64,000 nucleotides of DNA from Bilabrum cf. latius (lineage: Eukaryota), in the NCBI GenBank assembly GCA_965178125.1, contig OZ237739.1:62001-126000 (forward strand). Reading direction: 5' to 3'. A program made the position numbers and the translations under genes. This document shows positions 3,052 through 61,200 of the stretch, in pieces. The notes under the pieces are model-generated. The model saw only the letters and a list, made by a program, of their open reading frames with translations, did no database searches and was not told where the DNA came from. How positions within the stretch are numbered: position 1 is the stretch's first letter; each line of letters starts with the position of its first letter.

Positions 3052-4837
3052 ATGAGCAGCTCTAAAACTACCACTGCACCTCCAATCCAGGAGTAGGTGG
3101 TGGCAGGTACCGAACTGCGCCCGCTCCCACGCCCTCTGGTGCTATGGTACCACGACAGGCAGACTGTAAGTTGAGGAAACGGCCCTTCCAGGCTGAGAAC
3201 AATAATTTGTCGTTGATCTCTGTCGTACGACATGCCGTCGCTGCTGGTTATCTTCGCAGAAGGATTGGAGCACGTCGTTGAAGCCAGTTGCAGGGTGCAA
3301 AACCGTTCAGTCGTACTGGAGAGTGGCGAACCATCTGGCAAAGCCATCTGATATGCCTCCAGGCAAGGGAGACTTGCTTTGGTTCGTTGTGAGACTCTAA
3401 CAGTCAGCCTCGCTGATGGTGCTGGGCTTGCGTTGCTCGTTCACTCGCACCAACGTGTTGTTGCACAAACTCAATCTGGCATCGCCGCAGGAAGGCGTTC
3501 GTCCCGAGTGGGAATCGCCAGCGAATGCCCGAGGTGGTCGCATCATGCTTCGGGTGCGCCGGGACACGCTGACGCAGTGGGCTTGGTCGCGCATCTCTCT
3601 AGCCTTCGTGTCGGGCCGCCTGGACCGCATGGGCCCAGTGCGCAAGGATGCCCCCGGGGAGGCAGGGGACCCTGGCCGCAAGGAGTTTAAGCCCGCGGAC
3701 CCGAAGCGCGCCGCGGACTCTCGCGACCCCGCCAACCGGGACCAGGCCAGGACTCGGGCGGGGCTGGCTGCCGCCCGGAGCAGCCGCACCCCGCTGGTGC
3801 TCGGTGTGGCGCTGTGCCCCCGCAGCACGGAGGATCACATCGCGCTGTGGGTGTCCGACGCGGGGGACTCGGAGGGGGTGGCGGGCGTCCGCGACCTGCT
3901 GTGTTCCCTGGTGCAGGCCCCCAGCTCGGCCAGCATCGACTGGAGGCCCCACTCGAAGCGCATGCCCTCTGGCGAGCCCTGGCCCAAGCTGCCGCCCCGA
4001 GCGGACGACGCCGCATTCGCCGCTCAGTTCGCGCCCAGGCCCGCGCACAGCAAGGGGCCAGTGGCGAGCGGTCCCAAGCACGGGGCCCGGCCCGAGGGCG
4101 CGGGGCACGCAGTCACCGCGCGGGGCCCACCGGAGCGCGGCGCGGGGGCTGGGGGCATGGGCGCGGGGTTCAGGCGAGGCGGAAGCGCTCCCAGCGGCGG
4201 AGGTGCTTCGGGCTAGTCGGGGGCTGGGGTTGATAGCTCCGGTGGCAAGGCCAAGGGGTTCTCTGGGGGGGGCAAGTACAGGCCTGCAGCGGCGGGGAGT
4301 GCGGCCTCGGCGGGGACCAGTCAGGGAGCTGGCGCGGGGGCAGGTGATGGTGCCACGGGGGGCTCCGGAAGCGCCCCCTCCAGCTTTTAGCGGCACGGGC
4401 AGGGCCAGGCTCGCCAATGGGGCAAGGGCGGGCAGAGGGGCGGGCAGAGGGGCGGTGGCACTGGACTCAGCTGGCGGGAGCGGGCGGCCTAGAAGGCGGA
4501 GGAGAAGGCAAGGGCGGGAGTCGAGTCGGGGGGAGGAGGCTCCGGCCCATTCGGGGCCCCGTCCTCCTCGTCCTCGGGGGCACCCTCCCAGGGCGGGGCT
4601 GCCGGGGCCTCCACGAGCGGGATTGCTCGCGGGTTTGGGGCCCCCCGGGGGTACTCGGCGGGGGCGGGGGCCTCCGGTGGGCAGGGCCAAGGCGGGACCC
4701 GCGGGGCGGCGATGCGGGCGAAGGGTGGATACGGTGCTGGCCGCGCCGCGGGCGGAGCCAAAGGCAGAGGCTCTGGGGGTGTGGGCGACGAAGACGGGTG
4801 GAAGTCTGCCGGTGGAGGCAGGGGAAGGGGCAAGTGA
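3052..4837 (+). CDS. EIF4E: eIF4E-family cap-binding protein with long Gly/Arg-rich C-terminal tail (~529 aa)
   Basis: Exons 3052-3165, 3260-3388, 3491-4837 with GT-AG introns. Motifs PLPRPLVLWYH, KDWSTSL, TVQSYW, GVRPEWESPANARGGR, IALWV. In-frame TAG at 3094, 4214, 4388, 4490; ends TGA. Confidence 0.85.
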
Positions 4838-8307: not shown

Positions 8308-11300
8308 TCACCGCCTGCCGCCCCCGTCCCTACCCATCATGGCCATGCGCTGCCCCATGGCCACCATGCGGGCCTTCTTCTGCTCCCTGCGGACTGGCTC
8401 CCAAAGGGCGTCCTCCCTGGCGCGCTTCTTGTTGCGCTCCAGCAGCCTCTTGGCGTCCGTGACCTTCTTCTTCCTGTCCCTGGCCTTCCTAAGCGTGTAG
8501 ATCTTCTGCATGAGGAGCGCCTTGGCCCTCTCGTCCTCCTCCATGACCACCGCCCGCTTCTACAGGTAGCCCTGCTTGCCGCGCTTGCTCAGGTTCTTGC
8601 TCTTGCTCGCGAATGGGAGCTGGCTCTCCAGCTTGTCTGAGATGACAAACTTGGCAAACCTACGCTCCTCGGGCCTCTCCTCGATCTTGCGGTACTCGCT
8701 GTCTTGCTTCTGCAGGGAACCGATGCCCCTCTCTCGCCTGAGCTCCCGGGCCGTCCGCATCAGCACCGTCCCGCCGGAGGAGGACGAGGACGAGGCAGCC
8801 CCGGCCGCTCCACGACTCGCCTTCCCAGCGCCCTACTCCTCCTCCTCGTCCGAATCGCTGTCCTCCCCTGACCCAGACCCCACTGCCGCCGTCCCCGCCT
8901 CACCATCGCCCTGGCCCTGGCTCTGGCTCCTCGCCGCGTCCAGCAGCGCCTTCCTCTCCTTCCTCGATCGCACCAGCTGGCGGCCCTCCCTCGCCTCCTC
9001 CAGCAGAGAGTACACGGGGTTGTAGAACTCGGGCAGGGGCACGGGCACCCACGCCCGCATGAACACAATGTCGCTCCTCAAGATCTTGTCCTCGAACTGC
9101 GCCCGGAAGGAGCCGGGCTGGCCCTCTTTGACGGCCTTCCGGACCCTCCCCCTAATCCCACTCACCGTCCGGATGGAGGCACCCTGGAATCGGGCCACCT
9201 CCAGCGGCGAGTTGAACATGCCGCGGATCACGGCCGAGTGCTTGCTCACCTTGGCCGGCTCGCCCACTAGCTTGAGTTTCTTGACCACGGTCAGGCTTTC
9301 CTCGTTCTCCAGTATGGTGCCAGTGGCGCAGATCCGGTAGGACGAGGCCGTGTCAGAGGTCAGCTAGTAGGCCAGGTAGCCCGTGCTGGGCGGGGTCACA
9401 GGCGCCTGGAATGCGGCCTCGCAGTGCATGTGCTCCGGCGAGTACTTGAGGAAGCGCTTGCGGCCGCTCAGGTCAGCCGTGAAGTACGAGGGCACGGTCT
9501 GGAAGCGCCTCCACCCCAGCGAGACGATGAACGGGTCGCTGTTCTTGAGCAGCCGGCCATGCCACCTGTGGCGCTTGACCCTGGACCGCAGCAGACCCAG
9601 CGTCTCCTCCTGCGCGGAGAGCCCGCCCACCACGACGGGCCTGGAGGGCTCAAAGTGCGTGATGAACTCGGCCGGCATGCCCCGCAGCTCAATCCGCACG
9701 TACTCCCCCGCCCTGTGCCCCCGCATGCGCCTCGCCTGCTCCTCCCTGAGCCCCGCAAACTCGTCCGCGTTAATGGCCTCCTGCAACTCCAGGGCCTCAC
9801 GGGCGGCGGCGGCCCCCTCCTTGCCCCAGTCCAGCCTCGAGGGGTCCTTGAGCATGATCATGCGCTCCTCATCCTCGTCCACCTCCTTGCCCTCGCCCCC
9901 CTCCCCCTCCCCGTCCTCGCCATCATCCCCTCCCTTGGCGCCTGCCTTGAAGGACCCGCGGTCGTACTTGGAGTCGAACTCGCGCTTCTTGGCAGCACGG
10001 AGCGCGTCCATCGCAGCACGGTCCATGTCCTCGTCGTCCTGGTCATCATCGCTGCTGCTGCCATCCGATGAATCCCCGTCATCATCGCTGTCGTCATCGC
10101 TGTCCTCTTCCATGGGCGCTCCCCCGCGCACCACCTCACCTGTCTCGAGATCCTCGAAATCGCCATACACGGAGGAATCGTCCGACTCATTCCCACCCTC
10201 GGCACCGCCCTAGCCGGATCCCTTGCCACTGCCGCTGCCAGTGCGCAGGCCCAGCACCTCCGCCGCCGCCTCCGCCGCCCCCGCGCCCCAGTCCCCTGTC
10301 ACGAACCGGTGCCTGAGACTGTCTGCCGCCTCGGGCGAGTCCCAGCGAGAGGGGTCGGCTGCCATGGACGAAGCACCCGCATGCCCGAAGGAGGCACCGG
10401 CGCCCGACGATGGACCGTTTGCAGGAGCAGAGGAAGGCCCGCCCGCAGGCACGTACAGGCTGCCGTCCTCGCCCCTGGACTGCGGCGCCACCAGCCCGAG
10501 CCAGCTGCTAGCCAGCGCCCTGGCGGTGGAGCTTGGCCCGCCACCCATGCTCCCGTACCCCTGTGCACCGGCAGCCCCGGACCCCTCCTCGCCCTCGTCC
10601 CCGATGGAGGCCCACGGCCTGCCCCCGCTCACCAGACGAGCCGCCTCCGCGGTGAGCAGACTCGACTCACGGGCGGACAGGGACAAGGACAGGGAGGAGC
10701 CCTCTCCACCAGCCGCGCCCCGCCCGCCCCGACTCCTGCTCGCCTTCCCCCTCGCCTCGTCACCCACGCGCCGCAGCAGCCCACCCTCCAGATCGTCGCT
10801 GTCGCTGCCGCTGTCCCCCTCCCCCTCCCCCTCATCTTCCTCCTCGCGCCCCCCAGACCCCCTCGGCCCCTCAAACCCAGTGCCCAGAAGAGCCACCCCC
10901 TCCCCGTCCTCCTCTTCGTCCCCGTACACCAGCCTCTCCAGGTCAACCGCACCGGCCTTGCGCTCGCTCAGCGCAGCCACTGCCCTCTGCACCAGCCGCT
11001 GCTTCCATACCGCCCCGACAGACCTGCCCTCTGAGGCACCGTACACCGCCCCCGCCCCCATCGCTAGCCCATTCCCCTCCTGTTCCCCGATATCGCTGTC
11101 GCTGTCACCGTCAGCCCCTTCTCCTGCGGCGCTGGATGCCCCACCGTACGTCTGCCCCACTCCCTCGCTGCCGTCATCGCTGTCACTGTCGCTGTCACTG
11201 TCACTATCACTGTCGCTGTCGCTGTCGCTGTCGCTCGACTCGCTCCCGTCTTCCTCCTTTTCCTCCTCGTCGGCCTCGCCCCAGTCCTGTTCCCCCGCCC

Positions 11301-12810
11301 CGTGCCTCACCGCAGGGCCCCCCTTGAACAGACTCATCTCCATGTCGCCCATGCGGTCGTCCAGCCCCTCCGCGAGCCCCTGCAGCCCCCGCACCATCAT
11401 GGTGCCGCTCCCCTCCCCGCTCGCCACCGCAGCGGCCGCCCCGGAGCTGCCCCTGCCCCCCGTCAGCCTGAGCCCCAGGGCCTCTGCCTCCGCTTCCGCC
11501 TTGGCAAGTTCCGCATCCAGGCGCCGCGCGTCATCGTCGTTGTCCTCCTCCCCGCCCGCCTCTCCCGCCCTGCGCCCCTTTGCCCCGCCCGCCCCCGCCT
11601 TCAGATCGGAGGCGCGGCTCAGCATGGCGGCCCCGTCGGGCAGGTGGATGTAGGTCGCGTCCTTGTCCATGACCAGCCCGCCCACGTTGCTCATGGGCGC
11701 GTACAGTAGCGTCTCCCTCGCGTTGAGCCTCCTGTGCACCGTGGCCCCGATGGTCTTCCCATCCGTGGCGCCCCCTGCCGCCGCCTGCCTGGCCCTCTGC
11801 TCCTCCTGCAGCTTCTGCTTGAGCTGCTCAGGCAGCGGCACGGGATCGTCCAGCGGATCTACTGCGCTCACCCTAAAGTCCCCAGCCCCGCACACGTGCA
11901 CGGCCTGTCCCGCCTTGAGCGGGGTCCCCCGCACGAAGCCGAAGAGGGCCACGGTCCGATCCGAGTGGGGGGCCGACTGCAGCAGCGCGGGGTTGGTGCG
12001 GTCCTCCACCCTGTCGCACAGCAGGTATGGGTGCGTGCTCCTCCACACGATGGGCCTCATCTTGGTGCGCGAGATGAATAGGCCCAGGTTGTGCACCTCC
12101 CGCTTGAGGTACGAGCCGTGCTTGACCCCCGACAGGTAGAACAGCTTGGCCCCGTGGTACACCTCCGTCCAGAACCTGTGCTTGAGGAGCGTCTTCCTCT
12201 TGCGCATGGCCTTGCTGTCAGCGAATGCGTCCAGGTGGGTGAGCACCCCCATGACCTTGGGGAAGCCATGGGTCTGCATGATGTTGAGCATCTCGAACGT
12301 CTCCATCTCGAAGCCAAAGGAGGCGTCCACCACGAGGAGCATCAGGTCTGCGATCTTCGCCGCGTCTACCATTGCGTTGATGTCGCTCTGCACCTCAAGC
12401 AGGGTCACGCGCTTGCGCCGGCCTGCCACCACCGTGATCGGACCGCGCACGTCCTTAACCTTCTGGTTGGTCCAGCGACGCACGAGGCTCTGAATCAGAG
12501 TAGTCTTGCCTACTCCAGGAGGTCCTGCAACACATACTACCACCGGCGGGTCAGCAGACCCTTTCCGCTGCTCAATGAGGGCGTGCTCCCTCTTGTGCAG
12601 ACGGTCCAAGTTTCGCTGAATCGACCGCTTTGTCTTGCCTACCTTCGCGACACCATACGCTCGCGGGTTCCTGCGCCTTTCTTTTTCTGAAACCTGCTTG
12701 TCACCGAGGCTTGACTGTCCCTTCAACCTCTGCTCCTTCTTCTTCTTAGCCTTGGCTCCGGCTTGTGGGGCGCTATGCGACTTGTTCGGCTGCTGTCCCC
12801 CAGCATCCAT
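8308..12810 (-). CDS. BMS1: Ribosome biogenesis GTPase BMS1 (~1500 aa)
   Basis: [12 protein letters not shown]-loop, [55 protein letters not shown]. Five track ORFs lie in one frame, joined by TAGs at 10210, 9364, 8833, 8560; ends TGA at 8308-8310. Confidence 0.95.
11177..11236. repeat. Imperfect hexamer tandem repeat (TCGCTG/TCACTG) encoding (Ser-Asp)n in BMS1
   Basis: Visible tandem hexamers; translates as SDSDSDSD on the minus strand. Confidence 0.8.
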
Positions 12811-12994
12811 TGCGGTCACTGGTTGCGCAAGCTATACACTAATAAATCGAAGGGTGATTACAACCTACCTATCCCGGGGTGCGGCGTAACTTGTGCTCTT
12901 GCAGTTGGCCCTGTTCCTCCTTTTTCCGACCCAATGTGACGAGTGCTAAGCTTTGGCTGTTCCGATGACTTTGAACAGGTATTGCAAGCCGTAA

Positions 12995-15685
12995 ATGAAG
13001 CGTTATGCCCGGATCGTGCGTGTTCTGAGACGAAGTGCCCAGAAGATATCGCTGAGAGGGATTACAGGCCGGAAAACGTGCCGGATGTGCGCCCAATGCT
13101 CCCTGGCGAGACTGTCATCGCATCAACGCACTCTCTCGACGTCGGTTGCAAGGGCCACAAAAACAGGGGCCAGCGATGCAGTCCGCGACGAAGGGTATGA
13201 TCGTTTGTCCGACGTGCTTGTCGAGAAGGTGAGACATGAACGGGAGCTTGCCCGTGTTTGGTGCTCGCTGCCACATCACGACTTGAACAGGTAGACCAAG
13301 CCATCCGCCTGGTTTGTATTCCCTCCGCAGATCCGCCGTGACGGTCCAATGACATTGGCAGCGTACATGCGCGAGGCACTCACGCACCCGAAGTTCGGCT
13401 ACTACACGCGGAGGGCGCACGTGATCGGCCGCGAGGGCGACTTTGTGACCGCCCCCGAGCTTACCTCCCTCTTCGGCGAATCCATCGGCCTGTGGATACT
13501 GAGCCACTGGAAAGCGTGCGCAGAGCCCTCTTTGGTCCGCTTGGTGGAGCTGGGGCCCGGCCGCGGTACCCTCATGCGCGACGTGCTGGCAGTGCTTCGG
13601 CTCTGCCGGCCTCTGTACCAGGCCCTGTGCGTGCACATGGTGGAGGTCTCCCCTGTGCTGCGGGAGAGGCAGAGACAGGCACTGGAGGCCGTCCCCTTGC
13701 CCCGGGCAGAGGGCGAGCGAGACCTGCAGGAGCGCGGCATGAGGGCGGACCCCTCGCTGGAGGCCGCCTCGCTGCCCCCCATGGGACCCTCCGAGAGGAC
13801 GGGGGACGCAGAGGTGGACAAAGTGTGGGAGCAGGTCAGGTTCGCCAGCCCGGGACCGGGCCCCAGCGCCTCTAGCCCGGGGCTGCCGTCCCCCTCCAGC
13901 ACAGGGGCAGTCGCAGCCGCTGCCGCCAAAGAGCCCATGTACGCGATGGCGCTGTCCGACGGGCCCACCGTGACGTGGCACAGGCAGCTGTCCAGTGTGC
14001 CGTCGCACGGATGGGCCGTGCACGTGGCCCACGAGCTGTTCGACGCGCTGCCCGCGCACCAGATCCTCAAGACAACCGAGGGCTGGAGGGAGGTGCTCGT
14101 GGCCGAGAGGGAGACCGGCGCTGTGACGAGTGCGCCCGATGGGTATGTGACGAGTGCGGAGGAGGAGGCCAGGCTGCTCGGGCTGGGCAGCTGGGACCGG
14201 GCGCGGGCGGGTCCGGGAGCCCCCTCCCCCCGCAGCTTTGACGAGTGGGGCGGGGCGCACCAGCTGGACCTGGACCTGGGGCGCAGGGCGGGCGCCTCTG
14301 TGGAGGACGGGGCGAGGGACCGAAGCCCGTACGAGGGGAAGGAGGAGAAGGGTGGTGGATCGGATCGGGAGGGCCCCAGGACGCTGCGCATGGTGCTGAG
14401 CTCGGAGGAGACCCCCGCGGTGCGGTTCTTCAGGGGGGGGCAGTCGGGGGGCAGTCGGCTGGGGGGTGCCCTTGGGCTGGACGAGGAGCAGGTGGAGCAG
14501 CTGACCAGGGAAGCGGAGCAGGACGATGGTTCGGAGGGCGGGACAGGGGGGCAGGGCAAGCTGCCGAGCGTTGGGAGGGTGCCTGCCTCTGTCCGCGCGC
14601 TGGCTGCCACTGAGCTCAACCGGCCCTCGCTGGAGGAGGCAGTGAGGGGCATGGGCAAGGGGGATGCGGAGGGGCCCACGGAGCGGGTGGGTGAAGGCGA
14701 AGCGGAGCAAAGGGCCGAGTCGAAAGCGTCCATGGATATTCCGGATGAACTGCCGGTGCCTCCTCTATTCAGAGACCTCAAACCGATCGTGGAGGATAAG
14801 GAGGGGGATGCTCGCAGTGGGAGCATTGACACGGAACACAATGATGGAGGGTCGGAGCAGAAGGAGGGCCAGGACCAGGACGAGGTGGGCCGCTTGCTGA
14901 AGGAGCTCGGGGGCAAGCTCAGGGACCACGGGGCCATGGGGACGCCCGATGCCAGGGAACAAGCGGGGGAACAAGGGACAGGGAGGAGCAGTGCCGAGGG
15001 CGAGGAGGAAGAGAAAGAGGGCGAGGGCGCAGGCACAGACCCCATGGAGCGGTGGATGCAAGCGGCCCCGGTGGGCACCCGCGTGGAGTACTCGCCCTCT
15101 GCAGCGGCTCTGGCCCACGAGCTGGCGGTGCGGGTGGCCGTGACCCGGGGTCTGGCGCTGGTGGTGGACTACGGGCACGACAGGGCCTCTGCCCACAGCC
15201 TCCGGGGGATCCGGAATCACGCCTTTACCCACCCCCTGGAGCGGCCGGGGGACTCGGACGTGACCGTGGACGTGGACTTCAGGGCGGTGAGGCACGCCGC
15301 CGAGGCCGCCGGTCCCGGGGTGCGGGTGACCGGGCCCATGGACCAGAGCGAGTTCTTGCAGCGGATGGCGATCGTGGAGAGGGCGCAGAGTGCGCTGGCG
15401 GGGAGGCTTAAGGCCGAGCAGCAGGCGGGGGGGTCGGGGGAGGAGACGGAGGAGCTGCGGGTGAAGCTGGAGGCGGCGCTGCGGCGGCTGCTGCACCCCG
15501 GTGAGATGGGCTCGCTGTACAAGATGCTGGCCATCAGCAGCGCGGGGGCGCCGGTGCCCACCCCGTTCGAGCACTCTCTGAGTCCCGAGGAGAGGCGGAG
15601 GGTGGAGCGTGAGATCGTTGAGGAGCAGGAGAAGATCAGGAGGAGGATGCCGGCGGGCGCGGGGCCGCCCATGCCGGATTTCTGA
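12995..15685 (+). CDS. NDUFAF7: NDUFAF7/MidA mitochondrial arginine methyltransferase (~862 aa, with large insertions)
   Basis: Exons 12995-13228 and 13331-15685; splicing gives LSDVLVEK/IRRDGPMTLAAYM. Motifs GDFVTAPE, LVELGPGRGTL, AHELFDALP, VDYG, DVTVDVDF, MGSLYK. Arg-rich transit-like N-terminus; ends TGA; no TAG in exons. Confidence 0.9.
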
Positions 15686-15941
15686 TCGAGGGCTTGGGCA
15701 ATGCAGGGGTGCTGCCAAGTGGGCGCACTTGCCTGCCGATGTTGTATCGAGGGACGACCTTACGCTGCTGCTTGGTATTGTTGAAATTCAACGTCTGGTC
15801 GGCGCGTCAAGCTGGCCCAAATCTCGGACATTTCTTGAGAGTTCCTGAATGTTCCTGGGAGCTGCCAGGCGGTTTCCTATGCCAGCAGACGCACGTGTGG
15901 CTGTTCAGCCTTAGAGCAAATATTTGCGACAATCGAGCCGC

Positions 15942-18322
15942 ATGGCAGAAGTGGAAGTATTCGGGGAACCAACTGAGGAGGAGCGCGCGGCTGCCTAGCA
16001 ACGAAGACGGCAGCGATAGCGAAGCGCGGCACGCGCTGCTCTCTGGTCTCCGCAGGAAGTCCGCTCAGTCGTTCCAACCAAGACTGTTGAAGTGCAAACG
16101 AGATAGCTGCATCAAGATGCTTGGGCATCAGCTGCTGTTCTTGCAGTTGGCTGTCTTGCAGCGTTCTCTGCTGCTCTGCAATTAGGGGCAGTTGGGGCGT
16201 CGGACTGGAGCGGTGCGACTTGCACGGTCGTCGCTGGCTCTGTTGATTCAGGAGGCACGTGTGACAGGCTATAGCTGGAATCTTCGGCTGGTTCAGCGCA
16301 TTCCATAAACGATATCGCACTTGAGCTGGGACAAGTTCCCTCAAGCGGCGCCGGGTGCTCATCGCTCGTCGGGCAGGCCTTCTCTTGCTTCACGAACGAT
16401 TTAGAAGACGCTGCGTGTGTAGGAGACACAAAACCGGACCCTGTTCATAGATATGTGTAAGGCACTCCTATATTCAGCCTATCACAACCTTAGCCGTGGA
16501 TGAAAGCCGCGGTCGACACCATCACGCCCACATCTAGCTCCTTGCCACTCGCAGGTCATCAAGCCTCGCAATCGGCATCGGTATCACCGTAGCCATCGCA
16601 TCCGGCCTCCCGCTCCTGCTCTGGGGCGTGCGATATTGCATGCACAACCCAGAGCTGCCGTACGCCTGGGCGTACAGGTCCTACTGGGCCTCCGTGTGGG
16701 TGCTCGCCTTCCTCGGAGCGGGCGCGCTGGCTATCGCCGTCGCGGCCATGCTCGTCCCCGCCCTGGGCGACGTGCGGTCCACCCAGTGCGTCATCACAGA
16801 AGTGGAGCCCATGGCCGGTGCGAGCGGCTCAGTGTGCTCCTCCGTGCTCCGCGTGGGTGCCCTCGGCCTGGACCGGCACGGGGTCCTCCTCGATGGGGTC
16901 GAGGGGCTCTCGGCCAGCGCCGTGTCCCGCTGCACCCCGGGCACGTCCTCCCTCATCGGCACAGAGATCGACTGCTGGTACCGCCGCAGCCAGCACCGCG
17001 CGCAGGAGTGGAGGCCCCCTCGCTACCCGGAGGCCTGTCCCTCGTACGGGGCCCAAGTGTCCGACCGCAGGGGGCGCTTCTACGGCGAGCTGTGGACCAG
17101 CCGGGCCGGGGCCCCTCAGAGCTACGACGAACTGGAGCAGCTGCTTCTGGGGATTGGTGGCTTGCTGGGGGCCTGCATCGTGGCGCCCGCCCTGCTGCTG
17201 TACCCCATCTCGGAGGCCGTGCAGAGCGGCAGGGTGTGCCGCTGCTGCTGCGGGGACGAAGAGGAGGCAGACCCTGACCCCGATGCGGGGCCAGGGAGCG
17301 CTGCGGGGACCCCGCGAGGCAGGCACAGGGGAGTGGCCGGTGGGGATGAGGGTGACGAGGACGGCAGCGAGGAGGGGGACGTGCAGGCGAGGGCAGAGCG
17401 GGAGGACGCCGCGCTGGCGAGGGCCCTTCAGGACGCGGGGCCGGAGGCCGACTTCGAGCAGATCATGCGGCAGGTGAGGACTCAGCTGCAGGCGGACCGG
17501 GAGCAGCGGCGGCGTGCGATGGCAGCCAGGGCGGCGCTTGCGGGCCGGGGCTCGGGTGAGAGGAGGAGGGGGAGGAGGGGGGGGAATCCACAGGACGCGA
17601 GGCACAGGCTCCGGGGGGTCCTGTGGGATGCAGACTCGGTGCGGAGCGCGGATCCAGTGGCGCAGGTGTCGGAGCGGTCGCTACCTGGCGAGGAGGAGGG
17701 GGGGCACTCTGGGCGAGATCCTGGGGGTGTTGGCGGGGATGTGGATGGGGATGGGGATGGGCAGGGGCAGGGGCACGCAGTTGTGCTCGTGGGTGCTGGC
17801 GGGGGTTCGGATGAATCTGGTGGGGGTGGCGCTGATGGTGTGGGTGTGGAGCTGGCATGGCGCGGCGGTGCTACAAGGGGGCCAGATGCAGAAGTGATCG
17901 AAGGGGGTGGCACCGGTGAGGAAGGTGGACTGGATGGTAGATCTAGTCTGGCACCAGGCACAACCGCCGCTCCTCCTGTGTCCGTCAGCCACACTGGGTC
18001 TCGGGGCAGCTTGGACGATGAGGAGTTACCCGAGGGGTTGCAGGCCGGTAGAGATAATGTTGCGGGCCGTGCAGGCGCAAGGGGCGGGGAACAAGGTGAT
18101 GGGAGCCCTGCTGGCTCCGAGTCGTCTGCAGGTGGAGGAACCACACCGGGAGGGGATGGAGGTGGGGGCATGCCAGACGATGATGCCGGGAGGCAGGACG
18201 GGCCCTGGTCTGCCCTTGTGTCAACTGCTCCAGTGGCGCAGGGAGAAGGAGGAGGTGATGGCGGGATAGCGCCAGGGGCAGCGGGCCCGCCGCCTGCTTA
18301 CGAGGCGCCAGAGGAGGCGTGA
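15942..18322 (+). CDS. Multi-pass membrane protein with two tandem TM/Cys-loop/TM modules (~760 aa)
   Basis: Exon 15942-16456 (TAG at 15996, 16017, 16104, 16272; absent from the ORF track), intron 16457-16554 (GTAAGG..CGCAG), exon 16555-18322 ending TGA. Four hydrophobic segments. Confidence 0.7.
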
Positions 18323-21513: not shown

Positions 21514-23261
21514 TCACTTCAGAGCGAGCGAAAGAGCAGACCCCGATGCTATTCCTACCTGCAAGATAAGTCCCATCAAGAAACCCACCTTCTCTCTGTC
21601 CACCGGGTCCACCATCCGCGGTGCATACGCGAAAGCGAGCGTAGACACGTATCCGTTCGAAAGCGCAAAGACGAGCATCAGCACCAGGGTCCACGGGTCC
21701 GACGACACAACAGGGAGTGCCCTGGCCGCCACGATCCACAGAGGGACGAAGACGATCCTCGCCAGAGAGGCCCACGGCAGCGTCTGGCGAGAGACGCAGG
21801 TGAGCACCGCGGGCAGCGAGCGCCCGGTCGTGTCCCCGATCTGGAAGGCGGTCAGCAGCACCACGGGCCACCAGTCCGCCTTGCTCAGCCCGGGAAGTCC
21901 CACTGTTCCCTCGTACTTGACGGCCACCACCTCCCCGGGGAACACAAAGAACGTCGCGGTGAACACGAACCCAATGGCGAACATCATGGGCCACACCACC
22001 TTGGACACCCGCAGCAGCGCCGTCAGCCTGCCCCCGCAGGACGAGTCCTCCCCCTATCCCTGTCCCTGCTCGCCCCCGGCGCCCAGCAGAGCGTTCGCTT
22101 CCGTCGGCTGCCGGGGCGCAGAGGCCGAGGCAGGCGGGGGCGCCGCCACTCCGTCCAATCCCGCGTCTCCATCCTCATCGTCCCTGCCCCTCTCCCGCTC
22201 CTTGTACTCTTGCATGGAAAATCCACCCGGGGAATCCAGTCCGTTGATGCGGCGAGCGCTCCCCAGCTGGGACCGCCTGCGCGAAGAAGCAGCCCCAGCC
22301 CCAGCTGCGCCCCCCTCCCGTTCCATCTCCCCCTCGAGCAGAGGTGAGGCCATGGGCGACTTTGCCCTTCTCCCTGCCTGCTCATCGGTGCCATTCGCAG
22401 CTCCTTCCTTGCTATTGTTCTCTTCTGCCGCCCTCCTGTTCTCCACCTCGTCCAGGAATCGCCTGGAGAAGGGCATGGACACGAGCCAGAGGTAGCACGC
22501 GGAGCACACGAGCAGCACCACCCCCGCGGTGATGAAGTAGATGATGGCGCTCTCCTTGTGCTGGGTGGGGAGCGCGATCTTGGTGGCGATCCGCAGGATG
22601 GAAGCCAGGATGCCGGCCACTCCCTGCCCACTCATGAGCCCCGTGTTATAGATCTACGGGTAGAGGCTGCTGAGCCCAAACAGAGACGGCTGCTGGATGC
22701 TCGTGCACACCCCGATGAACAGAACCGTCCCGATCGTAACCCAAACCCCGTAATGCGCGTAGAAGGGAAGCAGCACCAGCACGATAGCCTGTCCGATAAA
22801 GGTGCTCAGGATGCGTGCGCCGAACGAAAAGTTTTCCCCGACGACCATCACCACACCCAGCATGGGAAGTTGGGGGTAAATGTACGCCACAGACAAGAAA
22901 AAAGATATGCCGCTACCAGGATACTCTTCCGTAAAGTAATCCAAACTGCGAAAAATTGCAACAAAGTCGGCGCGTAGTAAATGTCACAAGAGTGTGTTTG
23001 TGCAGGCGCAAGCTTCAGGCTCAAAAAGGCTTGCAAAAGCCAGACTCACGCAAGAAGTACGATATTCCACGGCATCAGGAGCCCCAAACCGAGGATGGTC
23101 ATCAATACATACGCCGTGCAATTGAAGTCGGATGGTTTTGATATGTGGCTGCCATCGTCGTCTTCCAGTACGTCGCCGTGGTGCCCCAACGTCGGAGTTC
23201 GGGGAGGAAAATCTTTCTTATTTTCAAGTTTCTTCACCTCAGGTGAAATTGCGGCCTGCAT
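21514..23261 (-). CDS. Equilibrative nucleoside transporter, SLC29/ENT family (~547 aa)
   Basis: Exons 23261-23050 and 22945-21514; splicing restores LGLGLLMPWNIVLLA/LDYF. Motifs MSGQGVAG, FFVFPG, GDTTGR, LSNGY. TAG at 22654 and 22054; ends TGA. Confidence 0.9.
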
Positions 23262-24831: not shown

Positions 24832-26136
24832 TCAGTGCAGCTCTGCGCTCCCCCTCGCCTCGTCCTCCAGCGCCCGCAGCTCGTCCTCCTTGATGCGAGC
24901 CCCCTTGGCCTTGCGACCCTCCTTGCCCCGCCGGTGCGCGGGCCTCCCTTGTTCCCTGCGCGTCCTCTTGGCCTCTCGCCTGGCGCGCGCCTTCTTCATC
25001 AGCTCGCTGTCCTCTTCCTCCTCTTCGTCCATTTCCTCCTCGCCCTGCGAATGTGCGTCTCTTCCGCCCCTTGCCTCTCGCCCGGCCTCATCCTCATACC
25101 CCCCGTCATCGTCCAAACCACCACCCTCGCTCTCCTCCTCAACCTCCCCCTCCCCCTCCCCCGCCTCCGCCTCTGCCTCCATCTCCGCCTCCTCGGCCGC
25201 CAGCTCCCCGTCCAGGGCCCGGGCCGCCTCCTCCGGGCTCACGTCCACCATACCTCCGTCCTCACCAGCATCTGCGCCCCCCCTGCTTCCCCCGGTGCCC
25301 GCGAGGAACAGCCGCAGCGCCTCCTCGTCCTCCGGGTGCAGCTCGACCTCCTCGGGGGCGCTGTGCAGCTTGCTCATCGCGGCAAAGTGCGTCTGCCAAG
25401 GAATGGACAGCCGGCTGACCGTCGTCACGCCGGCTAGCTTGCGCTTGATCGGGGTGAAGAGCATCGTGACGGCCTGCGGGTTTCGCTTCACCGAATTGGG
25501 GTCCGCCCTGCCGCTGAGGCCGACCATGCCGACGATCCTTTGCAGGATCACCTTGCGCGCCGCCTCCTGGACGCGGTACGGGCTGTCGGCGCGAGGTTTG
25601 GCAAACGCCACCGATACCTTGACCTGATGCCCTTTCTAGAGAAACTTTCGGGCCTGGTTCAGCTTGATGCTGAGGTCGTGCGACGTGATTCTAGCTTGGC
25701 ACCTGATTTCCTTCAGTTTTTTTGTGCCTTTCGACTTTGATTTCTCCTTCTTCTTTTGCTCGTACATAAATTTGCCTAGGTGCGAAATCTATGCTACGGG
25801 TAGGCCATCCACTCCGCTACTTTTCGAAACAAGCACGAGATTGAGCTTCTTGCTCTGGGCGATCGCAAGGGCTCGCTCGGTCGGCGTTTCGCCGAGGTTC
25901 TCCTTATCAGGTCCAAGAAGCAGCACGGATCTAAATGCCTTCACAACGTCCAGGTCTGCGAGCTGCTTCTTCTTGCCAGGCGCCCTTGAGGTGGCAAGCC
26001 TGGTGCCAAGTGCAAACTGATCTGGCAGGCGCGACGCCGATGCGAGCGGACCGAGCGATTGGACTGGCACGTACGGTCTTCGAGCAATACAATTTCTTGA
26101 GGGCAAGCACGAGCAAACCCTACGGAGAGCGCGCAT
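24832..26136 (-). CDS. MTIF3: Organellar (probably mitochondrial) translation initiation factor IF3 (~434 aa)
   Basis: Transit-like N-terminus; ENLGETPTERALAIAQSKKLNLVLVS, PVA*ISHLGKFMYEQKKK, HDLSIKLNQARKFL*KGHQVKV. TAG at 25789 and 25636; ends TGA. Confidence 0.85.
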
Positions 26137-29200: not shown

Positions 29201-31073
29201 CGCAACCACTGCGTCCTGCCACGCGGACTCCAGCCCCGCGCCGGCCTTAGGCCCCCCCGCGAACAGGGTCCCCGCCGTGGGGGCGAAGGCTCCAGACATG
29301 CTGGCATGTGCTGTGGGCAGCGGCGCCCCCCCGCTGCCGCGGCCCCGGCCCTTGCCCCTGTCACCCCCCCTGCGCCCGTGCCTGCCCTTCCTGTCGAACT
29401 GCCCGTCCACCATCTCGGGCGCGATCCTGATCTGGCCCCCCCTCAGCGCCTCGATCGGGATGGGGGGGCCGGCGGGCAGGTCCGGCCTGGTGAGGTCCAG
29501 GGACTTGTCGTTGTTGTACCGGACCGTGATGTTGGAGTTCTTGCTGAACTACACCCTAAGCCGGTTGCCCGTGTCGTAGATGCACTTGCCGTCCAGCTCG
29601 ATCTTGGCGAAGGCAGCCACGTCCGTGGAGGCGTACTCCACCAGCGCGTTCGTGTGCCCGTCCCTCGTGAAGATGACTAGCCGCTGCAACCCGTCAAACC
29701 TTCCGAAGACCTTTTGCATGATACCGGAGGTGATCTTGTGCACGCAGTGGTACACGGTCACCAGCAGCACTGGACTAGGGGGATTCCCATCCGCATTCCC
29801 CACGCGATCCCCGCGCCTGCTGCCACCCTGCATCCCACCACCCTGTCCTCCACGACCCCCGCGATGCCCACCTCTGCCTCTTCCCCCGCCTCTACCCCGG
29901 CCCCTGCCCCCCCCTCTGCCTCTACCCCTGCCTCGACCCCTGCCCCTACCGCCACTGTCGACCGGTCGCGAGGAGTCGCGGGCCAAGCCGGGCAGCGGTG
30001 GAGGCTAAGCGGACACTGTACCGCTCGCAGCCGCCGATGCTGTCCCCACTGGGGGGTCAGCTGCACCCCCGGGGCCCTGTACTCCCTGTCCCTGCCCCTG
30101 TCCCTGTCCTGTCACTGGAGCTGCGGCTTGGGAGCGCACTCCATCACCCCCCCCGTGTCCACCCGAATGCGAATGGGGTTTCCCTGCACCGGCAGTACCG
30201 GCCCTTGTCCCTGTCGCCGCGGCTGCAGCAGCACCAGAGCCAGAGCCAGATCCAGACCCAGCACCGGAAGCAGCAGCAGCAGCCGCCGCCTTGGCCGCTG
30301 CCACCTGGGTCGGGTCCAGCGTGGTGAGCTTGGAGAACCGCAGGGAGAGCTTGGTGTCCTGCAGGATACACGGCTTCTGGGCGTAGTAGGCCACCAGCCG
30401 CGCGAGCCCAGATCCTGACCTTGCCTCGATGTGCGCGAAGGACCCGTCCTTGGAGACCCTTGCGAACCGGAGGGGGGTGAAGGGGGCCATCAGCTTCTCC
30501 AGGTCCTGAGTGGCGGTGTCCGGGGGCAGCTGCTGCACGGACAGGACCTGCGAGGGGTAGTGGTGGGAGTGATGTGAGGCAGGGGGTGCAGGGTGGCGGT
30601 GGGGGTGCAATGGCACTGCCAGTGGCTAGACTCTATGATGAGAGCCGGCGGCAAGGCGGGAGGGGACGCTAGAGCGGTTGACGATGTTCCCTTTGTAGCT
30701 TCCACGGGCTGTGCAACCCGAGGTCAGCGAAAGGAACCACATTGCTTTTAGGAAATCTCACCCAACTGGGCACGTCGCCCTCTTTCCAAACGAAGCTGCC
30801 TAGGTCCGAGAATTCCATGGACCGCCGGTGTGCGTCCTCTATGGGAAGTTTCTTCTTGCGACTCTTTCCGGTCCGCGCGAGCGATCCACCCGATGCAGCA
30901 GCTGATGTTGCATGACCTATCCCGACGGCTGGACTTGTTTCTTCGTGCACACCCGAGATGGAATGCGAACCTACCGCTTGAAACTACTGCCCATTCGGCT
31001 GCTGCACGCTTGCTCCAGCATCGATGCTGATATACCCACCCCCAGAGGACGGACGATCCAACTAAGCGCTCAT
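26264..31073 (-). CDS. PTB/hnRNP L-like multi-RRM RNA-binding protein with RGG and low-complexity regions
   Basis: PTB RRM2-like SPVLLVTV..VFGRFDGLQRLVIF..ALVEY..LDGKCIY..LRV*FSK..YNNDKSLD. TAG at 31062, 30984, 30005, 29549, 29027, 28607, 28166. One intron from 30761 (GTGAGA) to about 30626 (acceptor uncertain); ends TGA. Confidence 0.8.
27600..27695. repeat. Perfect hexamer microsatellite (GCGGGT)x16, encoding (Pro-Ala)n
   Basis: 16 exact copies visible, inside the PTB-like CDS. Confidence 0.95.
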
Positions 31074-31255
31074 ACCTCTGCCACAAGTCCCTCGATTTGT
31101 CGTGGTGCGGTTTGTGAATCTCTCTGCGATCCGTGAAAACCACACTAGCTTGATTGCAAGATGCTGCGCTCTTCAGTCCAGGTCAGAGCAACCCTCCAAT
31201 AAATAAATGGAGTGATACAAACACTACGCACACCCGATTCCGGTCGCAGGTACGG

Positions 31256-44400: not shown

Positions 44401-44769
44401 CGGCTAATGACCGCTCGTAATATTTAGAGATGAAAAATCGAAGTCAAAGTCGTCCTCGGTCGTGAGAGTTGACGTGCCAAACTCATCATTGCCCTCTTCG
44501 CCGTCCGGTGATTCGCCGTCGCCATTCTTGCTCTCGCTCGCGCCAGCTCCCGACGATGCAACCCTTCGGGACAGCTCTGACATGCTGAGGGATGCAGTTC
44601 CACCGAGGAGCTCATCGCGCGCGCTATCTTCGTTCCCGTCTGCACTCTCTGGCTCGCTTGCCTGCTTTGCTGGAGCCTTTGGCGCCGGAGAGTCAGCGTA
44701 TCGATTGGGGGTGTCAGCCGTCACAGTCGACCCTGCAAACAATGCATTTCTTGACGCATCTTCCTGCAT
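41449..44769 (-). CDS. VPS52: GARP complex subunit VPS52 (~1044 aa)
   Basis: LQSFQQQLGSITREIRGLQ..KLRNR, LKRPNTNVQMLQ, YEQVFRS, CHDSVAILL, LAWPRFKAIFDANLKS, PHSATKRFAEF. Intron 43459-43644; TAG at 44404, 44257, 43771, 43042, 41497; ends TGA. Confidence 0.9.
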
Positions 44770-45180
44770 TTCAAGCAGCTGTGCCTTTGCGAGCAGCTCC
44801 AAACTTCGCACAAGCGATTCAGAAAAGTGCTCGCAACCACTACTGCCAGTGGCTCGTCAGTGGCATCCACGGCGTGGAGGCAACTCAGCCAGCCTGAAGA
44901 GTCAGCATAAATTGAAATGGGGTCAACGTGTGGCCAGCATGCGAAACGTACTATCGATGCAATGCATCCAACGCCTGCTGCCACCAGCTGGCTGGCAGGG
45001 AGCGTCCGCAGTGTCCCGAGTAGCGGTGGCAACCATCGGGGGGCCTTCCCCCGTCCCAAGGCCCCGGCCGATCGATGGCCACCCGCATACAAAGTCCTGT
45101 CCAACACCTCACCCGCCGACCCGATCCCGAGTCCATGCACTTCATGACCCCATGCGAGAGCCCCGCCTGCTTCCAGCCCT

Positions 45181-46071: not shown

Positions 46072-46168
46072 TGTTTATCCTTCTTGCCGTCACTGTACGA
46101 ACCTTGCAGTGCCGTTCCTGAAGCCTGGTTCCGGGTTCTACAAATCTACTGATTATTGGCATTCGAAG

Positions 46169-47173: not shown

Positions 47174-47362
47174 TAGTATACTGGAGGCAAGCCCTTGTTA
47201 TTTTGCATAGAAATTGTGCGCATAATCCACTTCCACTTCCAGTCGGCACGTCTGGTGAATGGTGGCTTCAAGTTGCTGCCCGCAATCGTACTTCCGGTTT
47301 ACATGGATCGGAGCAGGAATCAACTGTACTTTTCTTGCCACGGATAGAGCAACAAAACAAAC

Positions 47363-47435
47363 CGCCTCTGCTAGGATTCGAACCTAGATTGAGTGCTTCA
47401 AAGGCACCAGTGCTGAACCATTACACCACAGAGGC
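47363..47435 (-). tRNA. trnQ: tRNA-Gln, anticodon UUG
   Basis: Cloverleaf GCCTCTG TG GTGT-AATGGTTCA-GCAC T GGTGC-CTTTGAA-GCACT CAAT CTAGG-TTCGAAT-CCTAG CAGAGGC G (73 nt); anticodon at 47399-47401; T-rich Pol III-like terminator follows. Confidence 0.92.
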
Positions 47436-47770
47436 ACAATTCCCAGATGCCAAATCACCAAGCAACGGACCTGCGACACCCCGTGTACGAGCACATTCTA
47501 CCCCAAAGAAGCAAGAGGTTTCGACAGAGCCGATCCCAGCAGGCTCCGCAATGCGACCGCACGAGCTCCACCCTGCTTCACCCAGTGTACACGCCGCCCT
47601 GTCTCCACATCGCCTGGCCGGTGAGGGTAGTTTCGCCCGCCGATCGAAGGGTCCACCTTCACCGCACGGCGACGGCAGAAGCCAATAGCCGTGCGGTGGC
47701 CTCGCACCACAGTGACGAATCTACCACGCAAGTGACGCGACGCAAGTCGCCACCAGGCTGAAAGGCCGGC

Positions 47771-56316: not shown

Positions 56317-56349
<33 letters not shown>

Positions 56350-58238: not shown

Positions 58239-61200
58239 TCAATCTAACCCTAAAATGGCCTGAACGTCGCTGTCTGCAGGTAAGGTCACGGAAGCGAACG
58301 GACGCCGGACCGCTTCAGCGCCTGCTGCTGCCTACCCTCCAGACACTTCCTGGGCCGCACCGGCCGCCAGGCCGGATGCCGCATCGTCAACGAGCCCTCG
58401 CAGTTTACCGAAAGCAGCCCGCAGAACCTGCCCCACCCTGCGTCTCACGCGCTGCCGAACCCGCGGGGCACGCAATCGGCCACCAACTTGCTTGGACAGC
58501 TCGAACCGCGAGCAGGCGCGCCACAATGCACTTGTCACGCGTTGCAGGATCTCTTCCGACTGCGTCAGCCCAGCCGAGTCCCCAGCGCGCAGCCCGCGCA
58601 CTGCGCGCTCTGCCGAGGCAAAACCGGCCCCCTCCAGCACAGACGCGGCCTCGGCCTCCACGACGGCTTCCTCCGCCTCTCCCTGCTACGCTGCAAGGCG
58701 CTGCACCCATGCCGAGGTGGCCCCGTGTCTCCTCAGCCGCTGCAGCAGCACCTCGATGCTGTTCACCGTGTGCACCGCCCCCTGCCCCTTCGGCTAGCTC
58801 TCCGCCGCAGCTCTGACGGCCTCCACCGCAGGACGCAGCACCGCTGACAACACCGGGGCCAGCCGCCTACCACTCTCGCCCCCCATCGCGTCCTCCACCG
58901 GATCTGCACCACCACGCGATCCATTCGCACCGCTCCCCAGCAGCCTCAGAAACGGAGCCAGCCGCTCCACAGCGTCCTCGCACGCGGGATGCGGCCCCAG
59001 GTCAGGAGGCACCGCGGGCACAGCCGAGGCAGAGGCACCGGATGTGCCCAGGCCACCGCCGCTGCTGCCCAGCGCCACATCCCCGCCCTCCTTAACAGCC
59101 AGGTAAAGCCGTTCCTAGGCCGCGGCCTCAAGCGCCGACAGCTGCGTCAGGAAGCTGCTCGAGGCGCTCAGCAGCGGCCTGGGCCCGCCATCTATGGGCC
59201 CTGTCCCCGCGGCACCGCCTGCAGACCGTTGCCCCTACTGGCCCAACGAGAGCATGCCCCGGTATAGAGCGAGCGTGTCCAGGATGCGGTAGGCAGCCAG
59301 CCCGTCCCCAGCCGCCTCCACTGCCTGCTAGAGACGGACCCTGACCGGCTGCTCAATCGCCGATGCGAGGTCGTCCAGCGAGGCAGGAGCCACCTCACAT
59401 GGCAGCGGCACTCGCTCCTCGCCTTGCTCCTTGCCTCGCTGCTCATCCCCGCGGGCCTTTGCCCGGGCATCTGCAGCTTCTGATTCTCCTTCTTTGCTTT
59501 CGGCCGCATCATGCTGCTCTCCTGGACCCTCGGGCTTGATGTCTTCTGCTTCATGGGCACTTCCGACCTTAGCGCCACGACTTTGACCACCATCAAACCC
59601 CCCACGGCTAGCTAATATAGTACTGGTCCTCGCCACTGTCCCAACACCAGCAGCCCCACCCCCAGTCCCCGCCCCAGTGGCCAGCAGTCCAAGCGGGGCC
59701 AGCACGGCCTCTCTCTCCTCCACCAGCCTGCTGTGCACCCACCCCAGCACATCCCCGACATAGCCCGCGCTGTCGTGCAGCCTTGCATCCAGCGGGGCCA
59801 CGCCTCGATCGGGGTCCCCTCTTGACAGCGCGCGCACGAGGTCACGCGCCACCACGCGCCTGCGCGCCCCCAGCACGGCCTGCACCGCCCTCCGCAGCAG
59901 CGCGGGCCGCATCACCAGCCACTCCAGGGCCAGCCGGAGCAGACCCCCAGCGCCCGCCCCCTGCCTTGCTCGCGCCCTCGCTGCCATCCCGAGCCTGGCG
60001 CGCATGACACGCTCTCCCAACCAGCCAGACCTGCCTGCGAGCACACTACCGTCATCGACAGATCCAGCAGTGGCAGCAGCAGCGGAAGACTCTGACCCGC
60101 CGCCCTAGTCCCAGGACTCTAGAGCCTCCAGCGCGCTCACGAGCTCCTCCCCGTTCCCGCCGCCGCCCCCCATACCGCTATCCCCGCTCGAAGCACCGCC
60201 TGCAGGACCCCCCATGCCTCGCAATCCCGCAGCCCCCAGCTTCATCTTGCCCATCACTGCCTCCAGTGCTCCCGGCAGCCTCATCACCTGATCCCTTGCT
60301 CGGGGCCTGGAGCCACCACCGCTCCCACCACCAATGACCCCCAAGCCCCTCCCGATCGACGAGGGCCCTCGCCACGCGAACGCATCGCCATCGCCCTCGC
60401 CCTCGCCCAGCCCTGCACCACCTCCTCCCCGTCCTCTCCCCTCCTTGACCTAGAGCTCAGGGCCCAGCATCACCGGCAGGCGGACCTCAGGGGGGTCTGA
60501 CCGGGCCCACAGCCGCCCTGCAGCAGCCACGGCCCACCGCCCCATCCCCTGCAGCGCCCCCTCCTGCGCCTCGGCCGTGTGCTTCAGGGCGTCCATGCCC
60601 AGAGCGTGCAAGGGGGTGCCCAGGAGAGCCACGCTGCGGGCCCTCGCCCACCTGACGTGCTCCAGGGTAGAGAAGCAATCGCATGCCAGGGACAGGGCAG
60701 GCTCATGCCCATCGTGCGGTGCCGTGCTGTCTGCTGGTGGTGCTGCTGGTGCGAGCTGCTCGCCGGCCGGGCGGGTCTCCTCGGCCGACGGTCCGCGGGC
60801 CAGATCCTAGTGCTACGCCATAGGTGCGATGAGGCCCGCAATGAGCGCACTCAGGTGGCTGTCCTGGTGGGAGTGCCCTGGACCCTCCTTGGCTGCCTGC
60901 CGCTCCTGAGGGCCGACCACGAAGGCAGCGCACAGCAGCGAGGAGCAGTACCGCTTCTTTTCGGCCGCGATGGATAGCTTCTCAAACGTTGATGAGTACT
61001 GCAGTAGCTTGCTCAGCCTACTTTCTGTCAGTCGCAACCTCTCATCAGCCGCCTCGGCTTGCTTCACAGCGGTATCAGCCAACTCCACGACGGCCTCTAC
61101 AGCCTGCAGAATCCGACGGTACAGCACATAATCCATGCAATATAATTCAACGCAGCAATACTTAACATGCCATTGAACGAGAAAGCGGTGGCGTTCTTAC

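Follow-up and report, generated by a model that had tools for sequence, protein, structure and literature searches.

Nuclear genetic codes in which UAG alone has been reassigned to glutamine (NCBI translation table 15) are described, in excerpts from two papers, for Iotanema spirale (PMC5304391) and for Protocruzia tuzeti and two phyllopharyngean ciliate lineages (PMC11687900). The same excerpts report other fates of the codon: leucine in the rhizarian exLh (PMC5304391; the rhizarian also appears in PMC11687900), serine in Scotinosphaera (PMC11687900) and, together with UAA, glutamine in hexamitin diplomonads (NCBI table 6; PMC5304391). Here we analyse a 64-kb window from Bilabrum cf. latius (contig OZ237739.1, positions 62,001 to 126,000; all coordinates below are those of the window) in which conserved genes, among them the gene for the protein BMS1, are crossed by in-frame TAG codons. 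Judging from the aligned sequences, UAG is very probably read as glutamine in this organism; it would be an ordinary sense codon, and the code most probably matches table 15.

The codon at the centre of the analysis lies at 9364-9366; the plus strand reads CTA here, so that the minus strand carries TAG. With TAA and TGA as the sole stops, this codon falls within a stop-to-stop open reading frame (ORF) of 1,564 codons, which is identified as BMS1 by the Pfam families RIBIOP_C (257 bits) and AARP2CN (83 bits) and by BMS1 chains in the PDB (E = 1e-204). The coding region holds four in-frame TAGs, at 10210-10212, 9364-9366, 8833-8835 and 8560-8562.

8311..13002, minus strand: BMS1 ORF, supported by Pfam and PDB
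8311..12810, minus strand: BMS1 coding region; the first ATG is ORF codon 65 and the TGA stop is at 8308-8310
9364..9366, minus strand: in-frame TAG at BMS1 ORF codon 1213, in the context TGYLAY-TAG-LTSD; the codon of the main finding
8560..8562, minus strand: in-frame TAG at BMS1 ORF codon 1481, in the C-terminal tail

Under the standard code, BMS1 would stop already at codon 931, 633 codons early. Downstream of codon 931, the same frame encodes the conserved C-terminal domain and a tail that can be aligned to the C terminus of yeast BMS1, and the RIBIOP_C match, which spans ORF codons 1078-1321, covers TAG codon 1213. The TAG in BMS1 is more than a chance occurrence, because a strongly conserved domain continues in frame beyond it and the same pattern recurs in many genes.

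Opposite codon 1213 stands Q in human (...tgflaiQsvs...), Chaetomium and yeast (...fcgvQi...) BMS1. An earlier note on this DNA had matched TGYLAY*L to a conserved glutamine in human and yeast motifs, and both motifs were given correctly. In a MAFFT alignment of the final 520 residues of each of the 120 homologues listed, the column contains Q in 109, K in 8, R in 2 and S in 1, with E in 0 of 120; after sequence weighting, the BMS1 orthologues have 82% Q here. The RIBIOP_C model mixes BMS1 and Tsr1, and Q and K score equally in it at this codon. Translation with NCBI table 15 gives Q at the site. The column at codon 1481 is variable across the same 120 homologues (S 39, A 20, T 20, Q 19, E 5, N 4, K 4 and D 3; A in yeast), and codon 1390 falls in a gap region of the alignment.

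The pattern extends throughout the window, which has about 64% G+C, is gene-dense, uses both strands and contains few introns. Its 18 Pfam-supported ORFs hold 51 in-frame TAGs over 12,033 codons, with no TGA and no TAA inside. TAG makes up 0.42% of codons in frame compared with 0.52% off frame (124 of 24,030) in these ORFs; the two frequencies are near each other, so that coding frames show no avoidance of TAG. Pfam domain matches extend across the TAGs, so that UAG stands in frame inside conserved genes as it does in table 15 codes, and alignments to homologues pass through these codons without gaps. The earlier note's statement that CAG is the dominant glutamine codon holds (402 CAG against 68 CAA in the 12,033 codons; 86%, 402 of 470), and TAG read as glutamine would account for 9.8% of all glutamine codons (51 of 521). 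The other TAG positions that it listed are also all TAG, in the peptide contexts given.

The identity of the residue was assessed in two ways. In the first, domain segments were translated with TAG as each candidate residue, and the whole-protein Pfam bit scores were compared; these scores are log-odds and were used as log-likelihoods under a flat prior, with no hand choice of homologues. In batch 1, all 20 residues were tried at 9 sites in 8 families; the highest totals in bits were K 593.2, Q 589.5, R 589.0, N 586.7 and E 585.8, and hydrophobic and aromatic residues scored much lower (Y 573.8, L 570.4, W 568.4 and F 564.2). In batch 2, 13 residues were tried at 8 sites in Nucleoside_tran, RRM_8, COG6_C and Vps52_C, which gave Q 255.4, E 250.7, H 249.7, K 249.6, A 246.5, D 246.0, L 244.8, Y 242.8 and W 238.0. 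The totals over the 12 families are as follows.

Q, 844.9 bits
K, 842.8 bits
E, 836.5 bits
R, 835.1 bits
N, 834.6 bits
H, 834.0 bits
T, 832.9 bits
S, 832.0 bits
D, 827.4 bits
A, 827.2 bits
Y, 816.6 bits
L, 815.2 bits
W, 806.4 bits

Taken by themselves, the generic profiles thus argue clearly against leucine, tyrosine and tryptophan and moderately against glutamate, and they hardly separate glutamine from lysine.

The second assessment used the residues found in orthologues. Homologues of COG6 were collected by searching 1.84 billion representatives in full with HMMER and a COG6 segment as query, which returned 276 matches; the best 150 were used, and columns were defined by local phmmer alignment. 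Three COG6 sites enter this test.

59328..59330, minus strand: in-frame TAG at COG6 ORF codon 623
58794..58796, minus strand: in-frame TAG at COG6 ORF codon 801
58686..58688, minus strand: in-frame TAG at COG6 ORF codon 837

Log-odds were calculated with Henikoff weights, an effective N of at most 20 and a pseudocount of 5 for five orthologue columns (BMS1 1213 and 1481; COG6 623, 801 and 837). Sites with fewer than 14 aligned homologues were excluded, namely COG6 654 (8), 694 (7) and 955 (3) and BMS1 931 and 1390. In the combined score, the weighted log-odds of the five columns replace the two generic profiles, and the ten other Pfam families are kept. Relative to glutamine, this score in bits is -10.1 for K, -11.8 for E, -11.9 for R, -13.4 for S, -14.9 for N, -15.7 for H and -17.0 for T, followed by -18.9 for D, -22.3 for A, -30.4 for L, -36.0 for Y and -41.3 for W. 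Once the BMS1 and COG6 orthologue columns are used, glutamine is at least 10 bits ahead of every rival residue. The columns opposite UAG are therefore best explained by glutamine, as in table 15 codes, across about 17 sites of which one is leucine-like and one arginine-like. Glutamine is the one residue that can acceptably take the place of basic, acidic and amide residues, and this is reflected in the log-odds.

These results bear out the earlier note's preference for glutamine over glutamate, leucine, tryptophan and tyrosine, both in the Pfam totals (844.9 against 836.5, 815.2, 806.4 and 816.6 bits) and in the combined score (-11.8, -30.4, -41.3 and -36.0 bits). Glutamine fits best in each of the combined tests. 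Its ranking was right to put glutamine first and overlooked lysine, which stands at 842.8 bits and is separated only with the orthologue columns (-10.1 bits). Its reading is likewise supported by the conserved columns, and by close relatives, and not by the low-complexity contexts that it also cited. Its statement that TAG takes the place of glutamine in low-complexity runs lacks statistical support: across 23 ORFs (16,622 codons, 65 TAGs), the frequency of Q within three residues of TAG is 0.049, compared with a background of 0.041 and with 0.082 around real Q. Two of the examples offered lie in ORFs that are probably untranslated, with no Pfam match and negative codon-usage scores, and do not count as evidence; the Pfam-supported genes score +0.19 to +0.49.

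15996..16019, plus strand: two TAGs, AAA-TAG-QRRRQR-TAG-R (the examples at 15996 and 16017), in ORF 15849-16457; 5 TAGs in 203 codons, no Pfam match, codon-usage score -0.135
30984..30986, minus strand: TAG, QQPNGQ-TAG-FQ, in ORF 30147-31172; no Pfam match, codon-usage score -0.209

A comparison of neighbour composition against all 20 residues was uninformative, with T, S, G, N, K, Q and R within 7 bits of one another.

A number of observations weigh against glutamine, and we set them out together with the residues that they favour. The whole of the residue evidence comes from about 17 TAG sites and 12 Pfam families in one 64-kb window, which is a small sample. The generic Pfam profiles alone give glutamine only 2.1 bits over lysine, and with RRM_5 in place of RRM_8 at the site in the PTB-like protein, lysine moves 1.2 bits ahead in the Pfam-only total; RRM_5, which overlaps RRM_8 at the same site, was kept out of the totals. 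Batch 2 did without C, F, G, I, M, P and V, which had trailed glutamine by 12 to 25 bits in batch 1. Q is not enriched beside TAG, and no transfer RNA (tRNA) with the anticodon CUA was found within the 64-kb window by ARAGORN or Rfam. Among 73 homologues, COG6 column 801 has L in 51, M in 6, T in 5, S in 3, V in 3 and others in 5, and never glutamine. Glutamine leaves this site unexplained, and none of the polar readings fits it; the local alignment (ES-TAG-PKGQG, a loop-like stretch) may be unreliable, and the column may reflect either a misaligned loop or a real substitution.

Other observations of this kind point towards glutamate, the residue for which UAG stands in peritrich ciliates and in Blastocrithidia-type codes. 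COG6 columns 623 and 837 are rich in glutamate and aspartate: the former, which is covered by 14 more distant homologues, has E 5, D 4, Q 1, S 1, R 1, V 1 and N 1, and the latter, with 71, has E 28, Q 11, L 8, A 7, D 4 and others 13. Further sites come from an organellar-type IF3, a PTB-like protein and the tail of COG6.

25636..25638, minus strand: in-frame TAG in the IF3 C-terminal domain, FL-TAG-KG
25789..25791, minus strand: in-frame TAG in the IF3 N-terminal domain, PVA-TAG-I
29549..29551, minus strand: in-frame TAG in the RRM2-like domain of the PTB-like protein, RLRV-TAG-FSKN
58332..58334, minus strand: in-frame TAG in the low-complexity tail of COG6, ORF codon 955

The TAG at 25636-25638 stands opposite E in two of three bacterial structures (Geobacillus and E. 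coli; Q in Thermus), and Pfam IF3_C scores E 48.0, Q 47.6 and K 46.9 there. At the PTB-like site the animal proteins have acidic residues (D for human PTBP1, E for hnRNP L), and opposite the TAG at 58332-58334 a COG6 relative that is 88% identical (P0124) has E, in a stretch where 4 of the 14 surrounding residues differ as well. Against glutamate stand its absence from all 120 homologues at BMS1 site 1213, the reversal of charge that it would bring to the IF3 N-terminal site (R in 3 of 3 structures), a score 8.4 bits (Pfam) and 11.8 bits (combined) below glutamine, and a second relative (P0123) that has Q and not E at COG6 623. Some sites are rich in glutamate, and the columns opposite UAG are not dominated by it. 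We regard glutamate as very unlikely.

Of the two direct comparisons with close relatives, the one in a conserved block thus yields Q and the one in a fast-evolving tail yields E. The Q is that of P0123 opposite 59328-59330; this relative is the more distant one over its whole length but is near-identical across a block of about 45 residues around the site. Three of the COG6 matches (P0122, P0123 and P0124) are short ORFs on contigs of 1 to 2.4 kb, and that of P0122, which is 82% identical, ends exactly one residue before the TAG at 59328-59330, as would be expected of standard-code ORF calling if the relative has a stop-type codon there. In public databases, the relatives at 82-88% identity (P0122 and P0124) are represented solely by short pieces of ORFs, with starts or ends around the in-frame TAG positions. 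These fragments suggest that a whole clade with the same code may be mistranslated under the standard code.

Lysine, or another basic or polar residue (arginine, asparagine or serine), is a similarly improbable reading. Lysine comes second in the generic Pfam total (842.8 against 844.9 bits) and leads batch 1 (593.2 against 589.5) because of the IF3_N and glutaredoxin sites, and K occurs in 8 of the 120 BMS1 homologues. The TAG at 25789-25791 is the main site that favours a basic residue: it stands opposite R in the structures from Thermus, Geobacillus and E. coli, and Pfam IF3_N prefers K or R by about 2 bits (K 55.3, R 55.0, Q 53.4 and E 50.8). By contrast, the orthologue columns place lysine 10.1, arginine 11.9 and serine 13.4 bits below glutamine, K is absent from the residues counted at COG6 623, 801 and 837, and at the PTB-like site RRM_8 gives Q 33.3 and K 30.5, an advantage for Q of about 3 bits over the other residues tried (29.3-30.5). 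The glutaredoxin site enters through Pfam only, and for IF3 and the PTB-like protein the comparison beyond Pfam consists of a few PDB chains; homologue searches with a 330-residue segment of IF3 and with the RRM2 region of the PTB-like protein returned no matches, probably because low-complexity sequence swamped or starved the word index. We know of no nuclear code in which UAG means lysine. Excerpts from PMC5304391 and PMC11687900 name none either; for serine, a reassignment of UAG is reported in Scotinosphaera (PMC11687900, in excerpt). Glutamine remains the very probable reading of the codon.

The remaining Pfam-supported ORFs of the window, some of which bear on how genes end, are listed here; positions are given where they matter to the argument.

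3401-4834, plus strand: eIF4E ORF; the domain ends near codon 180
NDUFAF7-type methyltransferase ORF
Acyltransferase ORF
Equilibrative nucleoside transporter ORF, with the TAG at 22054..22056 (minus strand)
Lipocalin ORF
Organellar-type IF3 ORF, with the TAGs at 25789..25791 and 25636..25638 (minus strand)
26267-30757, minus strand: PTB-like RRM protein ORF, 1,497 codons
WD40 protein ORF
AstE/AspA-family protein ORF
Monothiol glutaredoxin ORF
RNA polymerase Rpb11/AC19-like subunit ORF
41452-43476 and 43621-44856, minus strand: Vps52, two ORFs with an intron between them
45184-46074, minus strand: PG_binding_1 protein ORF, 297 codons
Methyltransferase ORF
50816-58132, plus strand: ORF of a ferric-reductase-like giant protein, 2,439 codons
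54077..54082, plus strand: two adjacent in-frame TAGs in the ferric-reductase-like ORF, 5' of a Q-rich tract
22054..22056, minus strand: in-frame TAG in a loop of the nucleoside transporter, GEQGQG-TAG-GED
Minus strand: COG6 ORF; the region observed in connection with its fragmentary relatives is 58242-59999

Several features of these genes deserve comment. Very long low-complexity inserts (AP, GR, SD, GQ and poly-Q) swell conserved proteins, including the PTB-like protein, BMS1 (1,500 codons) and the ferric-reductase-like protein. In the last of these, the tandem TAG at 54077-54082 is one that the standard code would treat as a strong signal to terminate, but the ORF runs 1,350 codons further. 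The repeat-like context (QG)(QG)(TAG G) at 22054-22056 points to glutamine in a manner that is suggestive only. Vps52_CC, in the upstream ORF, and Vps52_C, in the downstream ORF, are set apart by about 145 bases (about 43476-43621); the gene is split into two ORFs, and spliceosomal introns therefore exist in this genome. Upstream exons are also suggested for eIF4E and the Rpb11/AC19-like subunit, whose ORFs do not cover the beginning of the respective Pfam profiles. The PG_binding_1 ORF encodes a bacterial-type peptidoglycan-binding domain (E = 1.6e-6), which is unusual for a eukaryote; it contains two in-frame TAGs, and its C-terminal part has no Pfam match.

TGA ends all 18 of the Pfam-supported ORFs, and TAA ends none. 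The C termini that can be anchored by homology are all at TGA: that of BMS1 corresponds to the yeast C terminus, the profile of the nucleoside transporter ends 2 codons before its TGA, and COG6 can be aligned with P0124 to the last residue, past TAG codon 955. The 18 TGA ends were counted in ORFs defined with TAG as sense, a definition that would overlook any TAG acting as a stop within a low-complexity tail. Stop codons with a dual meaning occur in Condylostoma and karyorelict ciliates, and UAG could in principle be sense within genes and a stop at some gene ends. Some ORFs do run far past their last conserved domain through TAG-bearing low-complexity tails: the first TAG of eIF4E is at codon 272, well beyond the end of its domain, and a TAG in Vps52 lies 15 codons before TGA. 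In such genes, termination at a TAG is conceivable. The putative eIF4E tail consists of about 300 glycine-rich codons with three TAGs, followed by TGA. With the anchored C termini of BMS1, the nucleoside transporter and COG6 at TGA, and TGA at the end of 18 of 18 ORFs, we consider a dual meaning highly improbable.

That the TAGs are untranslated, as sequencing errors, within pseudogenes or in tiny introns, is next to impossible: two of the earlier examples do sit in probably non-coding ORFs and introns do occur (Vps52), but 51 TAGs stand beside no TGA or TAA in the 12,033 codons of the 18 conserved ORFs, alignments cross them without gaps, and the ORF of the 82%-identical relative is broken at the same COG6 position.

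UAA appears to be neither part of the change nor much used. If TAA tracked CAA as TAG does CAG, about 8.6 in-frame TAAs would be expected (51 × 68/402), and none is present in the 12,033 codons of the 18 ORFs. Beyond the TAA codons that bound ORFs upstream, the G+C content at third codon positions is 0.25-0.70 compared with 0.59-0.84 in those ORFs, a non-coding appearance. With no in-frame TAA and non-coding extensions past TAA, the change therefore concerns UAG only, as in NCBI table 15; on the scale of the window, UAA is not a sense codon. Candidate ORFs that end in TAA were rejected as real genes, since the coding scores of all of them are low or negative. As a terminator, TAA may be very rare in this genome or not in use.

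By analogy with other lineages that read UAG as glutamine, decoding would be carried out by a tRNA-Gln with the anticodon CUA. Such a tRNA would descend from an ordinary tRNA-Gln gene and receive its glutamine from glutaminyl-tRNA synthetase, and eRF1 would have lost recognition of UAG. New TAG codons would arise mainly from CAG by C-to-T transitions. The window contains a single tRNA gene.

47362..47436, minus strand: tRNA-Gln, anticodon UUG, found by ARAGORN and scoring 64.9 bits with the Rfam tRNA model; the anticodon was read in the loop

This gene, followed by a T-rich stretch, reads CAA and CAG and is not the UAG decoder; it would be the obvious standard of comparison should a tRNA-Gln(CUA) derived from such a gene be sought in the rest of the genome. 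No eRF1 gene is present among the Pfam-annotated ORFs of the window.

The best named relative of this BMS1 is that of Cafeteria roenbergensis, and in a FastTree phylogeny of the C-terminal region of BMS1 the sequence from the window joins Cafeteria in a clade of 8 members (support 0.97), on a long branch and for a single gene. This placement, which comes from one gene, points to a stramenopile-affiliated lineage, possibly the first with this code in that group; a full-text search of a limited literature collection returned no report of a nuclear code change in a stramenopile. A fuller account can be put forward only tentatively, and we think it doubtful as a whole: this would be the first nuclear code change in stramenopiles, near the bicosoecid Cafeteria, with UAG as glutamine, UGA as the sole working terminator, UAA wholly disused (neither sense nor stop in the 18 genes) and TAGs common to the 82-88% identical relatives, so that the change would be clade-wide.

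If the genome were annotated with the standard code, many of its genes would be cut short or broken up, and BMS1 would be left without its essential C-terminal domain; reading TAG as glutamine (table 15) permits correct gene models. UAG-only reassignments are rare, and a GC-rich case with TGA at every gene end seen would be useful for the debate between codon capture and an ambiguous intermediate.

Table 6 type codes occur in further lineages besides the hexamitin diplomonads. The window resembles them in that UAG is very probably read as glutamine, with a presumed suppressor tRNA-Gln, and differs from them in having no in-frame TAA in 12,033 codons, where about 8.6 would be expected. A code of this type, with both UAA and UAG as glutamine, was accordingly rejected: in-frame TAA is absent and there is no coding signal past TAA-bounded ORF starts. 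As in exLh (UAG-Leu) and Scotinosphaera (UAG-Ser), UAG alone is reassigned and UAA is not; unlike in exLh, leucine is 29.7 bits (Pfam) or 30.4 bits (combined) below glutamine, and unlike in Scotinosphaera, serine is 12.9 bits (Pfam) or 13.4 bits (combined) below it. A leucine code of the exLh type was also discarded, COG6 801 being the only leucine-dominated site (51 of 73). The closest resemblance is to the table 15 codes of Iotanema, Protocruzia and the two phyllopharyngean ciliate lineages: conserved genes contain in-frame UAG, for which glutamine is the best reading, UAA is not a sense codon and UGA is a terminator. In I. spirale, UAA is the primary terminator (PMC5304391, in excerpt), whereas in the window TGA closes 18 of 18 ORFs and TAA was not seen as a confident terminator. 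Unlike the fornicate and ciliate lineages that use table 15, the organism of this window has a BMS1 that groups with that of the stramenopile Cafeteria.

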